A stretch of DNA of 19,472 nucleotides. Origin: a virus. Positions 5,448 through 9,468 of this stretch are shown here, in pieces (the stretch's first letter is position 1; the number at the start of each line of letters is the position of its first letter). Location: the UHGV virus genome UHGV-0294315. The stretch is one strand, 5' to 3'. The notes under the pieces are model-generated. The model was given only the letters and a program-made list of their open reading frames with translations, did no database searches and was not told the origin of the DNA. Both the position numbers and the translations under genes were made by a program.

Positions 5448-6164
5448 ATGGAAAATAAAAAATCACTGACGACAGAACAGCTCGAAGACGCTAAGCGGCT
5501 TAAGGCTTTGTATGAGTCAAAAAAGAAAGAATTGGGAATAACCCAATACTCAATCGCTGATGAACTGGGTATCACCCAAGGAGCGGTAGGGCATTATCTT
5601 AATGGCAGAAACGCGCTAAACGTTGAGGTCGCATCTGGTTTTGCACGTTTGTTGCAAGTCTCAATTGCTGATTTTAGCCAGTCAATTGCTGCCAAGGTTG
5701 CAGAACAGGCAGAAAGCCTTAAGAGCGATGCCAACGTAAGGTATGCAGGGGAATACAGAGCAGGAAAGAGGTATCCGGTGTTAAGCAGTATCCAGGCTGG
5801 CTCGTGGTGTGAAGCATGCGAACCATACACCATTAAAGACATAGATGTTTGGCTTGAGTCTGACGCGCATATTCAAGGCAATGCGTTCTGGCTTAAAGTG
5901 GAAGGTGATTCAATGACGGCACCGGTTGGGTTAAGCATTCCAGAGGGAACATTCGTTCTTTTCGATACCGGAAGGGAGGCGATCAACGGCAGCCTGGTCA
6001 TAGCAAAACTTTCTGACTCTAACGAAGCAACATTCAAGAAGCTGATAATCGACGGCGGAAATAAATACCTCAAGGGACTTAACCCTGCATGGCCTCTCGT
6101 GCCAATCAATGGAAACTGCAAGATTATAGGCGTTGCAATTGAGACAAAACTAAGGCTGGTTTGA
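5448..6164 (+). CDS. cI: CI-type prophage repressor (HTH N-terminal domain plus S24 LexA-like autocleavage domain)
   Basis: N-terminus LTTEQLEDAKRLKALYESKKKELGITQ resembles lambda CI; C-terminus FWLKVEGDSMTAPVGLSIPEG...ATFKKL...NGNCKIIGV resembles lambda CI / P22 C2. No Shine-Dalgarno upstream, consistent with a leaderless PRM transcript. Confidence 0.9.
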   Translation: MENKKSLTTEQLEDAKRLKALYESKKKELGITQYSIADELGITQGAVGHYLNGRNALNVEVASGFARLLQVSIADFSQSIAAKVAEQAESLKSDANVRYAGEYRAGKRYPVLSSIQAGSWCEACEPYTIKDIDVWLESDAHIQGNAFWLKVEGDSMTAPVGLSIPEGTFVLFDTGREAINGSLVIAKLSDSNEATFKKLIIDGGNKYLKGLNPAWPLVPINGNCKIIGVAIETKLRLV

Positions 6165-6183: not shown

Positions 6184-6552
6184 ATGGTTGGAACCGCTAT
6201 AGCAAGCTTTTTTGGGATGTTGGCAATCTCAACAATTTACGGCTTAGCGCATGCTTTTATTGCGAAATCTCTATCAGAAAAAATAAGCCAGGCTTGGGCG
6301 CATAGATCAGCTCGTTTCATGATTCTAGTGGTCATAGCAATACAAGGGATATCTGCATTTATCCTCTATGGATCAAGCTTATACCTGTTGTATCAAGGCG
6401 CGACATTTACGCCTTACACCAGTGATTACGGAACTCTATACGATGGTAGTGAAGACATCTCTATGGCTTGGATCGTCTTTGGTTTATCTATGGCCGTGTC
6501 TGTTGTAGCAGACATCATTAAGGTAATTCTCGTCTTAACCTTCGCTGACTAA
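6184..6552 (+). CDS. Small integral membrane protein (122 aa, 3-4 predicted TM helices) co-transcribed with cI, in the rex position
   Basis: RBS AAGGGGGA 6 nt before ATG, 19 nt after the cI stop. Hydrophobic segments (e.g. VGTAIASFFGMLAISTIYGLAHAFIA, FMILVVIAIQGISAFILYGSSLYLLY). No family recognised. Confidence 0.6.
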   Translation: MVGTAIASFFGMLAISTIYGLAHAFIAKSLSEKISQAWAHRSARFMILVVIAIQGISAFILYGSSLYLLYQGATFTPYTSDYGTLYDGSEDISMAWIVFGLSMAVSVVADIIKVILVLTFAD

Positions 6553-6637: not shown

Positions 6638-6724
6638 AAATATCCTTTGTATTCATTTGTTTATCATTATTTCATCAAAAATAAATACCTTGGGTATTTA
6701 CACAATAAAATACCTACAGTATTC
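6638..6724. promoter_or_regulatory. OL operator cluster / pL region
   Basis: AAATAT-CCTTT-GTATTC (6638-6654), AAATAC-CTTGG-GTATTT (6683-6699, perfect), AAATAC-CTACA-GTATTC (6708-6724), the same consensus as OR. Candidate -35 TTTACA at 6697-6702. Confidence 0.55.
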
Positions 6725-6770
6725 TTTAGCCATCAGCAGGACGCTGGTAGCCAAACGGAACAGATTGGCA

Positions 6771-6812
6771 GGCTCTTTAACATTGATGGGATTGTCCCGC
6801 CGAAATGCGGGA
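6771..6812 (+). promoter_or_regulatory. nutL-like site (boxA plus boxB hairpin)
   Basis: GGCTCTTTAACA (boxA) at 6771-6782 followed by the TCCCGC-CGAAAT-GCGGGA hairpin at 6795-6812, the same boxB as nutR. Confidence 0.55.
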
Positions 6813-6983: not shown

Positions 6984-7103
6984 ATGTTAGACATCATTAC
7001 CAACCCAATTCTCGGTGGTTTAGTTACCACATTCGCCATCGGCTTCGGTTTCACCATCTGGTCTGAAGTAGATGACTGGATGTGGGAACGCAAAAACAAA
7101 TAA
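6984..7103 (+). CDS. Possible 39-aa single-pass membrane peptide in the pL leader
   Basis: RBS GAGGAA 7 nt upstream; MLDIITNPILGGLVTTFAIGFGFTIWSEVDDWMWERKNK has a hydrophobic core and a charged tail. Short, so coding status is uncertain. Confidence 0.35.
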   Translation: MLDIITNPILGGLVTTFAIGFGFTIWSEVDDWMWERKNK

Positions 7104-7449: not shown

Positions 7450-7457
7450 GGTGAGAT

Positions 7458-7709
7458 ATGGAATTTCATGAAAGTGCGATTTATGATTTTCGCGCTAACG
7501 CAAATTCAGTAAAACCACAGCCAATTGCAGTTCTTTTTAAAACAATGGGTGCGTGGGCTGTTTTATGCTTCGCCGCTGATGACACTGACGCAAGAATGGC
7601 AATAGGCCAAGAGATGGAGATGGACCCGACAAACGATGAATTCATAATTTATGGCGCTCCATCTAATTACTTACTTGATACCTGCAACATTTACAAAAAG
7701 GCTGCCTGA
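7458..7709 (+). CDS. Hypothetical protein (83 aa)
   Basis: RBS GAGGTGA upstream of ATG, 8 nt after the N stop. No family recognised. Confidence 0.55.
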   Translation: MEFHESAIYDFRANANSVKPQPIAVLFKTMGAWAVLCFAADDTDARMAIGQEMEMDPTNDEFIIYGAPSNYLLDTCNIYKKAA

Positions 7710-7729
7710 TGGTGGCCTTTATTTTTAGC
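7700..7729 (+). terminator. Terminator-like hairpin with T-tract after the 83-aa gene
   Basis: AGGCTGCC-TGAT-GGTGGCCT stem-loop (with G-U pairs) followed by TTATTTTT. Same loop and architecture as the stronger terminator at 14552. Confidence 0.45.
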
Positions 7730-7748
7730 ATAAACAACAGAGGTGAAT

Positions 7749-7883
7749 ATGAACGCAGTTGAATTTACAAAATGGATGGCAGAGCAAGATATCACAGGAG
7801 CCGACGAAAAGGCTGTGTACTACATGGCTCTGCTATGGATTCACAAAGCAAAAGAGGCTGCAAATGCTCTTGGAGGTGAGTAA
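7749..7883 (+). CDS. Hypothetical small protein (44 aa)
   Basis: RBS AGAGGTGA upstream; MNAVEFTKWMAEQDITGADEKAVYYMALLWIHKAKEAANALGGE; stop overlaps the next start (TAATG). Below the ORF-track cutoff. Confidence 0.35.
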   Translation: MNAVEFTKWMAEQDITGADEKAVYYMALLWIHKAKEAANALGGE

Positions 7884-8071
7884 TGAAAGTAAAAATAACT
7901 GCTTCTAATACCAGTTTTGTTAGTGTTGGTGATATTACAGAAGTAATAACAAACCATGATGGAACACAAGTTATGTGGTCTGATTTTTGTAAAAGATATG
8001 AGCGAGTTAGTTGGTGTAAAAACACATGGGGAGTCGAATACGAAGAAATACCTGAAATGCATGACGAATAA
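7883..8071 (+). CDS. Hypothetical protein (62 aa), AT-rich accessory gene
   Basis: ORF MKVKITASNTSFVSVGDITEVITNHDGTQVMWSDFCKRYERVSWCKNTWGVEYEEIPEMHDE. Visibly AT-rich compared with its neighbours, followed by two hairpins. Confidence 0.45.
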   Translation: MKVKITASNTSFVSVGDITEVITNHDGTQVMWSDFCKRYERVSWCKNTWGVEYEEIPEMHDE

Positions 8072-8166
8072 GCACTGTGTATTCATTCCAACGAGTGAAT
8101 ACACGGAGCAATGTCGCTCGTAACTAAACAGGAGCAGACTTGTTCTGATTATTGGAAATCTTCTTT

Positions 8167-8194
8167 GCCCTCCAGTGTGAGGGCAGTTTTTTTT
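8167..8194 (+). terminator. Intrinsic terminator upstream of the coiled-coil gene
   Basis: GCCCTC-CAGTGT-GAGGGC hairpin followed by AGTTTTTTTT. Confidence 0.55.
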
Positions 8195-8206
8195 GACGGA
8201 GGATAT

Positions 8207-9175
8207 ATGAGTGAAGTAACAGATTTAGTTGTTATTGAAAAAGCAAATGCAATGACTGTATTTCAGTCTGCCGACCAGATTGAAGAAATTCTCCAAAAGG
8301 TTGAACGTGAAGTTATGTCCTTTGTGCCTGATATCACAACGGCAAAGGGCAGAAAGGAGATCGCTTCTCTGGCGTATAAAGTTGCGCAGACGAAAACATA
8401 TCTCGATGGTCTTGGCAAAGACCTTGTTGCTGAACTGAAGGAAATTCCAAAGCTAATTGATGCCAACCGCAAGACAGTGCGTGATCGCCTTGATGAGCTG
8501 AAAGCCAAGGCACGCCAGCCTCTTACTGATTATGAGGAAGAACAGGCGCGGATTAAAGCCGAAGAAGAAGCTAAGGCAGCAGCTGAAGCTCTCGCAAAGC
8601 AAATTGAGTCTGACCATGAAATAGCGATTTTGATGGATCGCGAATTTGACCGCCAAAGAGAAGAGGCAAGACTCAAAGCGGAGCAGGAAAAGCGAGAGCA
8701 TGAAGAACGCTTAAAAAGAGAAGCTGAAGAGAAAGCCAGAGCTGAAGCCGAAGCAAAGGCAAAAGCCGAAATTGAAGCAGCAGCAAGACGAGAAGCAGAG
8801 GCTAAGGCCGCAGCGGAACGTGCAGAGCGTGAACGCATTGAAGCCGAGCAACGAGCACAGCGCGAAGCAAAAGAGGCAGCAGAACGAGCTGAAAGAGAAA
8901 AGCAGGCAGCAATTGAAGCAGAACGCAGAAAAGCACAGGAGGAGGCTGAACGAATCCGGCGCGAGGCTGAAGCAAAAGAGCAAGCCAGAATAGCAGAAGA
9001 AAAAAGAATCAAGGAAGAAGAAGAGCGTAGAGCAAAGGATAAAGCTCACCGGAAAGAAGTAAATAACAAAATACTTGCTGACCTTATCAAGGTTGGCGCA
9101 TCAGAAGATGTTGCTAAAAATATCATAACAGCCATCGTAAAAGGCGAAGTATTCGCAACAAAAATAACCTACTAA
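8207..9175 (+). CDS. Coiled-coil protein with a TolA-like Glu/Ala/Lys/Arg-rich central repeat region (322 aa)
   Basis: Start at the internal ATG 8207 (RBS GGAGGA); the track's 5' extension would include the terminator. Middle section is a long EAKAKAE / ERAERE-type low-complexity helix flanked by unique N- and C-terminal segments. Confidence 0.6.
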   Translation: MSEVTDLVVIEKANAMTVFQSADQIEEILQKVEREVMSFVPDITTAKGRKEIASLAYKVAQTKTYLDGLGKDLVAELKEIPKLIDANRKTVRDRLDELKAKARQPLTDYEEEQARIKAEEEAKAAAEALAKQIESDHEIAILMDREFDRQREEARLKAEQEKREHEERLKREAEEKARAEAEAKAKAEIEAAARREAEAKAAAERAERERIEAEQRAQREAKEAAERAEREKQAAIEAERRKAQEEAERIRREAEAKEQARIAEEKRIKEEEERRAKDKAHRKEVNNKILADLIKVGASEDVAKNIITAIVKGEVFATKITY

Positions 9176-9199: not shown

Positions 9200-9331
9200 A
9201 TGATTTACGCAATCGCGGGAGGCGCTCGCATGGGTGCCTTCCAACTAAATGAATCTTTACTTGAACGAATCACCCGTAAATTACGTGACGGATGGAAAAG
9301 AGTTGAGGTCTTATTATGCGCAATGAAATAG
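9200..9331 (+). CDS. cIII: CIII (FtsH inhibitor, stabiliser of CII)
   Basis: Manual translation MIYAIAGGARMGAFQLNESLLERITRKLRDGWKRVEVLLCAMK; the core ESLLERITRKLRDGWKR is identical to lambda CIII as remembered. Confidence 0.8.
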   Translation: MIYAIAGGARMGAFQLNESLLERITRKLRDGWKRVEVLLCAMK

Positions 9332-9468
9332 CCATTAATCACCAGATGCTTCGTGCGGCACAAAACAAAGCAGTAATAGCCAGATTTATTGGTGATTCAA
9401 AAATGTGGCTTGAAGCAAATAAAGCGATGAAATCAGCGATCAACATTCCGTGGTATCGCAGGAAATGA
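9316..9468 (+). CDS. kil: Kil-like protein (host cell-division inhibitor), overlapping the cIII 3' end
   Basis: MRNEIAINHQMLRAAQNKAVIARFIGDSKMWLEANKAMKSAINIPWYRRK; overlap with cIII and position match the lambda cIII-kil arrangement. Sequence similarity to lambda Kil is from uncertain memory. Confidence 0.5.
   Translation: MRNEIAINHQMLRAAQNKAVIARFIGDSKMWLEANKAMKSAINIPWYRRK

Follow-up and report, generated by a model that had tools for sequence, protein, structure and literature searches.

Positions 7,450 to 8,206 of virus genome UHGV-0294315 (19,472 nucleotides (nt), the whole of which is called the window) hold three small open reading frames (ORFs) of 83, 44 and 62 amino acids (aa) downstream of the antiterminator gene N. 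This block is a case of ordinary, cleanly resolved lambdoid cargo mosaicism beside an already described small RNA (sRNA), PreS. Its genes are probably exchangeable cargo in the "ral slot" of the pL operon, lying between conserved joints that double as transcription or RNA signals. The window comes from a lambdoid Escherichia coli prophage, of which it spans the immunity and early-left region. Its plus strand carries the leftward operon, whose elements follow each other in the order pL - nutL - 39-aa ORF - N - 83-aa gene - terminator t1 - linker - 44-aa gene - 62-aa gene - hairpin - PreS with terminator tL2a - coiled-coil gene - cIII - kil (Table 1).

Joints and combinations of the ral-slot cassette

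The slot was surveyed in 103 loci carrying the hairpin and the 5' end of PreS, assembled from an IMG/VR scan plus loci fetched earlier, and their ORFs were chained with regard to ribosome binding sites (RBSs). Between N and the hairpin these loci held 27 ORF families, the commonest being Ral (41 loci), and for the majority of them the function is unknown. The first-pass annotation, made from the letters of this DNA, had called the N-to-cIII interval a hotspot for anti-restriction and exclusion genes; as a hotspot for cargo it is borne out by the number of families and by the presence of ral in the same slot of lambda. Directly before the hairpin stood Ral in 27 loci, a 156-aa protein of the HK97 gp45 type in 15, the 62-aa protein in 12, a 149-aa transmembrane (TM) protein in 10, an Nmad5 protein in 10, a 67-aa protein in 5, and others. 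Phage Gally has a different 149-aa gene in the slot. Phage mEp234 has the order N, 83-aa gene, t1, linker, hairpin and PreS with no gene between linker and hairpin, and relative to it the 44-aa and 62-aa genes are an insertion.

Two positions could be distinguished in this insertion. The 62-aa or 67-aa gene (position B) was always the last before the hairpin and always preceded by a 44-aa or a 98-aa gene (position A), and the 44-aa gene was always followed by one of the two B-type genes, the linkage of A-type with B-type genes holding in 17 of 17 loci. All four combinations were present: 44+62 in five loci, 98+62 in seven, 44+67 in one and 98+67 in four. The alternatives at each position, 44 versus 98 and 62 versus 67, are mutually unrelated in sequence. 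The 44+62 pair of the window thus represents one of the four forms in which a two-position cassette, (44 or 98)+(62 or 67), was observed, its parts being joined by three short conserved junctions. The left junction runs from the terminator through TTTATTTTTGGCATAAACAACAGAGG to the ATG, and its linker was also found 5' of the 44-aa and 98-aa alternatives in other loci and after ral in lambda. The middle junction is a conserved stretch of about 25 nt that encodes ALGGE or ALGDK and contains the RBS of the second gene, and at the right junction GAATAA lies directly against the hairpin. The joints at which cargo is swapped in the ral slot of lambdoid phages are hereby defined at base resolution.

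Complete E. coli genomes gave the same picture. Of 5426 complete E. coli genomes, 2251 contained related DNA, as did hundreds of phage records. The 44+62 pair was carried by 27 of the 5426; others had one of the two genes with a different partner, and the homology then broke at the joints, at query positions 126/128 and 151 (window positions 7860/7862 and 7885). The 83-44-62 arrangement is rare, the entire block being present as one aligned piece in two of the 5426. Breakpoints at the joints fit reassortment, probably by homologous recombination.

The 83-aa gene lies directly after N and upstream of the first terminator, and is therefore co-transcribed with N. It has its last codons (N/K-K-A-A-stop), terminator and linker in common with lambda ral, which ends in NKAA-stop followed by the same terminator hairpin and linker. 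Ral was present in 41 of the surveyed loci and the 83-aa gene in 9, and none had both. Within the survey the 83-aa gene thus behaves as a positional alternative to ral. The likeness is one of position: no match to the Ral family (PF11058) was obtained for the 83-, 44- or 62-aa protein, the 83-aa gene matches ral only in its last four codons, and lambda Ral is basic whereas the proteins of the window are acidic.

Terminator t1 consists of a 10-bp stem at 7697-7720 and a T-tract reaching 7729 (-15.2 kcal/mol, z-score -3.4), and none of 200 shuffled sequences was as stable. A GC-rich stem-loop followed by a U-tract, the form of an intrinsic terminator, is found both here and at 8167-8194, and homologues of the two are annotated as terminators in mEp234 (rho-independent) and HK97. 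Both had been proposed in the first-pass annotation, the upstream one as a terminator-like hairpin at 7700-7729, and both are real.

No sigma-70-like promoter was seen between 7710 and 7883 in a consensus scan. With no promoter-like site before the cassette, expression is expected from pL only, of the 83-aa gene before t1 and of the cassette after it. Upstream lies a lambda-type antitermination apparatus, consisting of N (whose Pfam N_peptide match is weak and under the cut-off) and a nutL-nutR pair in which each site has a boxA and a boxB. Since N and the nut sites are intact and two intrinsic terminators lie in the operon, expression beyond 7729 would depend on N, by inference from lambda biology; that the terminators make the small genes N-dependent had been suggested earlier, and with identical boxA and boxB in nutL and nutR the suggestion is sound. 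Transcription would start at pL alone, once the prophage is induced or a cell infected. Lacking N, RNA polymerase would stop at t1, making N and the 83-aa protein immediate-early products; modified by N, it would pass t1 and go on through the 44/62 cassette and PreS to the genes behind them. When phages co-infect a cell or meet a resident prophage, homologous recombination at the short joints may add, remove or re-pair cassettes.

In lambdoid mosaic joints and morons, of which Juhala et al. in 2000 and Clark et al. in 2001 are said to have given accounts, non-homologous genes are reportedly swapped at short conserved gene-boundary sequences, and the cargo reportedly has an atypical GC content. 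The cassette resembles these systems in its swapping at short conserved boundaries and in its cargo of atypical GC. It differs from the mosaic joints in that its own joints double as terminator plus RBS and as a hairpin flanking an sRNA, and in being a two-by-two unit of two genes. A classical moron has its own promoter and terminator; we rejected this assignment, as the stretch 7710-7883 has no promoter-like site, the last gene ends at the shared hairpin, and only the 62-aa gene is atypical in GC. A 12-mer direct repeat in the 44-aa gene was at chance level and was dropped.

PreS and the hairpin at its 5' end

The sRNA LPR1, renamed PreS, is an Hfq-dependent lambda sRNA of the lytic cycle, about 88 nt long and processed to about 68 nt, which activates translation of dnaN and represses alaS and whose 3' end is the terminator tL2a (bioRxiv 10.1101/2024.10.31.621285; reviewed in PMC12197685). 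Positions 8106-8194 are identical to lambda PreS at 85 of 89 positions (95.5%) with no gaps, within the conservation limits used by the authors of the preprint (at least 92% identity to lambda LPR1 and at most 3 gaps), and are PreS by sequence. The 5' end at GAGCAATGTCG, taken from those authors' cloning primers, falls on 8106, and the seed TGTTCTGATTATTGGAAA at 8141-8158 is identical to the 18 nt between the arms of primers P970 and P971 (lpr1-delta-seed). The single internal substitution, A in place of C, is at 8136, where the predicted fold has a bulge; the 3' side of the terminator, with its run of eight Ts, differs as well. The terminator (8167-8186 plus T8) has the canonical shape and is conserved; its own z-score is only -1.6.

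The surroundings agree with this assignment. As in lambda, a GC-rich hairpin with poly-U lies in the pL operon between the genes of the ral slot and the ea10 slot, and the window copy has the same seed and terminator architecture. A 143-nt query ending at 8206 had matches in 393 phage records, with at least 80% of the query covered in 315, the lambda match being at 33912-34046 between ral and ea10; 8064-8110 (47 bases) recurs unchanged in 283 phage records, among them those of 933W, H-19B and HK97. Rfam gave nothing meaningful at gathering or permissive thresholds. PreS is not in Rfam, and automated annotation is therefore expected to go on missing the locus. Two other assignments were rejected: the Pas sRNAs of enteropathogenic and enterohaemorrhagic E. 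coli prophages are located near Q and the lysis genes, and an in-frame ORF from the ATG at 8111 to 9175 on the plus strand, running through PreS and T8 into the coiled-coil gene, is broken by the seven-T run of mEp234 and has only 2 nt between its start and GGAG.

Immediately upstream of PreS stands a hairpin that is exceptionally stable for its composition (-21.7 kcal/mol, z-score -6.9). Its 12-bp core at 8077-8104, which the first-pass annotation had described correctly as lacking a U-tract, ends one base before PreS; the full predicted stem has 14 bp, and its outermost pair takes in G8106, the first base of PreS. As an intrinsic terminator it fails: the stem is followed by AGCAATGTCG, there is no U-tract, and the terminator scan did not return it. 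The full lpr1 deletion of the preprint (primer P969) leaves the hairpin intact.

The structure is better conserved than its letters. In mEp043 and P22-like Salmonella phages homology to the window starts exactly at 8106, yet a hairpin of different sequence is found in the same place. Among 252 loci with the 5' core of PreS, at least five stem types without sequence relationship could be told apart in the 30 nt before it (the second hairpin scan was built to exclude the common type, and the frequencies of stem types are not population estimates). In all seven examples that were folded, a hairpin of 11-12 bp ended one base before GAGC, with energies from -12.4 to -15.7 kcal/mol and z-scores from -3.1 to -6.5. 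One variant carried a compensatory change from A-U to U-A, and one locus of the 252 had no hairpin. Since the structure is kept through at least five unrelated stem sequences, we infer selection for the hairpin structure itself. Its function would be tied to PreS, in processing, in protecting the 3' end of the upstream mRNA, or in insulating PreS from a variable upstream gene. In the expression scheme proposed above, it would insulate PreS from the variable gene before it or help to process PreS out of that transcript, and it offers a testable handle on how PreS is formed from the pL transcript.

Both the structure-conserved hairpin next to PreS and the two-by-two cassette are apparently unreported. 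They may be a linked pair, in which the hairpin is an obligatory element of PreS biogenesis or insulation, perhaps by screening the folding of PreS from the cargo gene before it, and the cassette an unrecognised two-position module of counter-defence or host takeover with parts, the SH3-like 62-aa protein above all, common to temperate lambdoid and virulent T4-like and T7-like phages; for the hairpin this would follow from the conservation of its structure, and as a whole we rather doubt the proposal.

Three observations on PreS were made in passing. The length of the T-run in its terminator varies among loci. Only 12 nt separate the end of the terminator from the start codon of the coiled-coil gene, the T-run abutting the RBS, and the coiled-coil gene, cIII and kil can be expressed only by polymerases that pass this terminator, which is also the 3' end of PreS. 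Finally, a diverged PreS-like sequence is present in phage ST104 (about 700-830 of the locus) and other P22-like Salmonella phages, with about 82% identity in the first 55-60 nt; its terminator is another one and its seed is altered to CGTTCTGGTTAATCGAAA. It has its own unrelated hairpin on the 5' side and gene 17 on the 3' side. The PreS family may thus be broader, with seeds adapted to the host.

Possible roles of the encoded proteins

Genes of this region have been screened before. Silas et al. (bioRxiv 10.1101/2023.04.06.535777) treated it as an accessory region containing ral, and their 200-gene screen included orf87 (Ral), orf184 (107 aa), orf60 (83 aa), orf57 (67 aa) and orf47 (the 149-aa TM type). 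The 107-aa slot gene orf184 was found to trigger the gop-beta-cII abortive-infection system. The genes of the window occupy the same operon slot as this region and lambda ral; orf60 is the 83-aa protein of mEp234, 96% identical to that of the window, and the 44-aa and 62-aa genes are absent from the set of Silas et al.

Several points weigh against reading the block as independent cargo between signal-bearing joints. No homology or experiment assigns a function to any of the three proteins, and orf60, orf57 and orf47 are absent from the genes to which either screen paper gives a counter-defence or cell-death phenotype. The 103 surveyed loci were not dereplicated, and seven of them were chosen by hand. 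A promoter that is weak, or not of the sigma-70 type, may have escaped the consensus scan. As regards the 5' end of the sRNA, the PreS preprint mentions neither the adjacent hairpin nor how that end arises. The complete linkage of A-type with B-type genes may also mean functional coupling, and is taken up below.

The competing explanation that fares best gives the cargo a definite role: the three proteins would be specific anti-restriction or counter-defence factors, analogues of Ral, each inhibiting host immunity early in lytic growth. They occupy the ral slot, in which the 83-aa gene and ral exclude each other, the accessory region also holds the trigger orf184, and all three are small and acidic, with isoelectric points (pI) of 4.4-4.9. 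Virulent phages of the T4-like and T7-like groups encode homologues of the 62-aa and 44-aa proteins in their early regions. The 62-aa protein gave a confident AlphaFold2 model (predicted local distance difference test score, pLDDT, 91.6), predicted to be a small beta-barrel of SH3-like fold, and the solved structure closest to this model is Gp54 of phage Bas11 (PDB 9axb), with the SH3 domain of RecD scoring nearly as well. Gp54 is a small, non-essential phage protein sensed by CapRelSJ46, which its authors suspect of inhibiting another defence (PMC11578894). The resemblance is distant: Gp54 is 14% identical to the 62-aa protein with no profile-level sequence match, and is a six-stranded barrel, whereas the model has five strands and a helix, like ordinary SH3 domains. 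Also against such a role stand the basic and unrelated Ral, the lack of any sequence or profile link to known anti-defence proteins, and the 83-aa homologue orf60, which is without a reported phenotype in the two screen papers. We hold this explanation to be plausible but less likely than not.

The 62-aa protein matches the C-terminal domain of 144-aa early-region proteins of the T4-like Krischvirus (phrog_16117), with 63% identity over 54 residues and no detectable similarity in DNA, and in the viral model library BFVD the strong matches to its model are these same T4-like relatives (Foldseek TM score 0.81-0.82). In the Krischvirus protein, from virulent phages, the SH3-like domain is fused to an N-terminal part of 88 residues that is unrelated; a 44-like or 98-like domain was looked for in that part and rejected, there being no similarity. 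An exhaustive HMMER search of representative sequences placed the 62-aa protein in a small family of stand-alone proteins or C-terminal domains of about 60 aa, and a few large repeat proteins that it also returned were judged compositional or repeat artefacts. The 44-aa protein has a homologue with 64% identity in the virulent T7-like Salmonella phage KKP 3828, among other neighbours.

Whether the two cassette proteins work only as a pair, in a complex or as a toxin-antidote-like couple, has to be asked given the 17 of 17 loci in which A-type and B-type genes occur together, and given that the stop codon of the 44-aa gene and the ATG of the 62-aa gene overlap as TAATG, which suggests translational coupling. 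All four pairings of unrelated alternatives exist, however, which is hard to square with a specific fit between proteins, and outside lambdoid phages the families are unlinked, as the fusion in Krischvirus and the different neighbours in KKP 3828 show. The same reassortment in four combinations, together with the lack of toxin-antitoxin or defence family matches in Pfam and PADLOC, led us to reject a toxin-antitoxin pair, and we regard an obligate unit of any kind as improbable.

A role in the lysogen is still less probable. The first-pass annotation had listed the three genes as candidates for anti-defence or exclusion; counter-defence stays plausible, and exclusion has become unlikely, with neither supported by homology or fold. 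Genes for superinfection exclusion or lysogenic conversion, expressed from the prophage like sieB, rex and Nun, do occur nearby, in that Nun-type proteins (112 aa, and 289 aa with a Nun C-terminus) lie between N and PreS in surveyed loci and a "superinfection exclusion protein" is annotated in the interval in some E. coli genomes. The genes of the block, however, sit within the cI-repressed pL operon, the cassette beyond a terminator and with no sigma-70-like promoter before it, and homologues of the 44-aa and 62-aa proteins are encoded by phages that are obligately lytic. Overall hydropathy is negative for all three (grand average of hydropathy, GRAVY, -0.08 to -0.55), which is not a membrane-type composition; membrane exclusion proteins of the SieB, Imm or Sp type were rejected on these values, the acidic composition and the missing promoter-like site, a judgement from composition and not from TM prediction. 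Because the proteins are acidic and non-membrane, the cassette has no promoter and its two proteins have homologues in virulent phages, an early lytic role is favoured. The three proteins most likely would bind host proteins early in lytic growth, in counter-defence or host take-over, and would be unlikely to protect the lysogen. The 44-, 62-, 98- and 67-aa proteins make a short list of candidates for counter-defence screens, in which the 62-aa family spans temperate and virulent phages.

The first-pass annotation had described the 62-aa gene as bracketed by hairpins. Read in this way, the two downstream hairpins would be the gene's own stops or insulators, around an autonomous moron-like unit. 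They do come immediately after the gene, which is AT-rich as many morons are; but these 130 nt are also present behind many unrelated genes, or with no gene before them, the two elements belong to the PreS locus and tL2a of lambda, and the cassette has neither promoter nor terminator of its own, so that the reading is hardly credible.

The ORFs are very short, have no Pfam or NCBIfam families and include one (83 aa) whose AlphaFold2 model is poor, but that any of them is not a real gene can be all but dismissed in view of their full-length PHROG families, strong RBSs, T4-like and T7-like homologues without detectable DNA similarity, preserved lengths, a dN/dS of 0.21 (dN 0.23, dS 1.08) for the 62-aa gene when compared with an E. 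coli copy of 76% identity, and an 83-aa protein conserved at 71-83% and constant length in Citrobacter, Klebsiella and Enterobacter, four genera being covered with E. coli.

All three reading frames are conserved as proteins in the homologues compared. The 189-nt length of the 62-aa gene is kept in nine of nine distinct variants, and the homologues of the 83-aa protein in the four genera are 71-98% identical. The ORFs were found where they had been annotated, exactly or within a few bases, each preceded by an RBS, and poor conservation of the frames, which would have spoken against them, was not borne out. The remark that the 62-aa gene is AT-rich also holds: its GC content is 33.3%, compared with 44% for the 44-aa gene, 42% for the 83-aa gene, 50% for N and 46.5% for the whole window. 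Homology and structure prediction, proposed as a check, gave PHROG families for all three and the SH3-like model for the 62-aa protein, and no functional family; the model of the 83-aa protein (pLDDT 56) was unfit for a fold search. Pfam, NCBIfam (E up to 1), PADLOC and PDB sequence searches, with single sequences and profiles, gave no credible match for the three proteins, word-indexed protein searches found close relatives only, minus-strand ORFs across the block matched no family, and a literature search on RefSeq accessions had no result.

Operon setting and further observations

The features of the block and its surroundings are collected in Table 1. The 44-aa gene is counted from the ATG at 7749; in the ORF list the same frame begins at a GTG at 7743. 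The order coiled-coil gene, cIII, kil is the same in mEp234.

Table 1. Features of the block and of the operon around it (window coordinates).
Feature	Position	Strand	Remarks
LexA-family repressor gene	5448-6164		upstream of pL-like promoter
nutR	~5139-5098	-	boxA GCTCTTTAAC and boxB TCCCGCCGAAATGCGGGA identical to nutL
pL-like promoter	6697-6725	+	promoter scan match
nutL	6772-6812	+	boxA GCTCTTTAAC 6772-6781; boxB hairpin TCCCGCCGAAATGCGGGA 6795-6812; 3' of pL-like promoter
39-aa ORF	6984-7103	+	phrog_7482, E 8e-24; between nutL and N
N antiterminator gene, 101 aa	7144-7449	+	phrog_271 "anti-termination protein N-like", E 7.5e-36
83-aa gene	7458-7709	+	RBS GAGGTGA; phrog_2471 full-length, E 7e-60
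Intrinsic terminator t1	7697-7729	+	stem overlaps 83-aa stop codon; homologous to hairpin after lambda ral
Left joint, conserved linker	7718-7743	+	TTTATTTTT(A/G)GCATAAACAACAGAGG; ends in RBS of first cassette gene
44-aa gene	7749-7883	+	position A; RBS GAGGTG; phrog_24660 full-length, E 4e-35
Middle joint, ~25 nt	7860-7885	+	GCAAATGCTCTTGGAGGTGAGTAATG; last codons of gene A (ALGGE), RBS, start of gene B
62-aa gene	7883-8071	+	position B; RBS GGAGGTGA; phrog_10407 full-length, E 3e-45
14-bp hairpin	8075-8106	+	2 G-U pairs; loop CAAC 8089-8092; no U-tract
PreS (LPR1) sRNA gene	8106-8194	+	seed 8141-8158; terminator stem 8167-8186 and T8 8187-8194, equivalent to lambda tL2a
Coiled-coil gene, 322 aa, ea10 position	8207-9175	+	RBS GGAGGA; phrog_1376, phrog_21365
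cIII	9200-9331	+	PHROG match; after coiled-coil gene
kil	9316-9468	+	PHROG match; after cIII

Other occupants of the slot were noted during the survey. Nun-type proteins ending in the C-terminal motif of HK022 Nun, VNHAHQRNPNKKWS, were encoded between N and PreS by a 289-aa ORF (e.g. in loci L080 and L119) and by a 112-aa ORF (e.g. in L057, L089 and L101); the 289-aa protein (phrog_12139) is Nun-like in its tail only, which matches phrog_5632. A common occupant is a 207-aa ORF family (e.g. L039, L112) with a full-length Nmad5 domain (PF18757, E 1e-69). This domain is associated with nucleotide or DNA modification systems, and the 207-aa protein is a candidate for a counter-defence gene based on DNA modification.

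Within the 62-aa gene, an 18-mer at 7976-7993 (TGGTCTGATTTTTGTAAA) matches the PreS seed in the same sense at 15 of 18 positions; as a direct repeat this is at chance level, and it is probably due to chance. The 39-aa ORF within the leader of N is conserved and hydrophobic, and in the related phage record HF4s the features annotated under the matched N region include a "TM helix-containing protein". Directly 3' of the repressor gene and on the same strand, in the position of rex, a 122-aa protein is encoded at 6184-6552 (plus strand; phrog_6534, full length) which appears to be a membrane protein and is a better candidate for exclusion or defence expressed in the lysogen than the three genes of the block.

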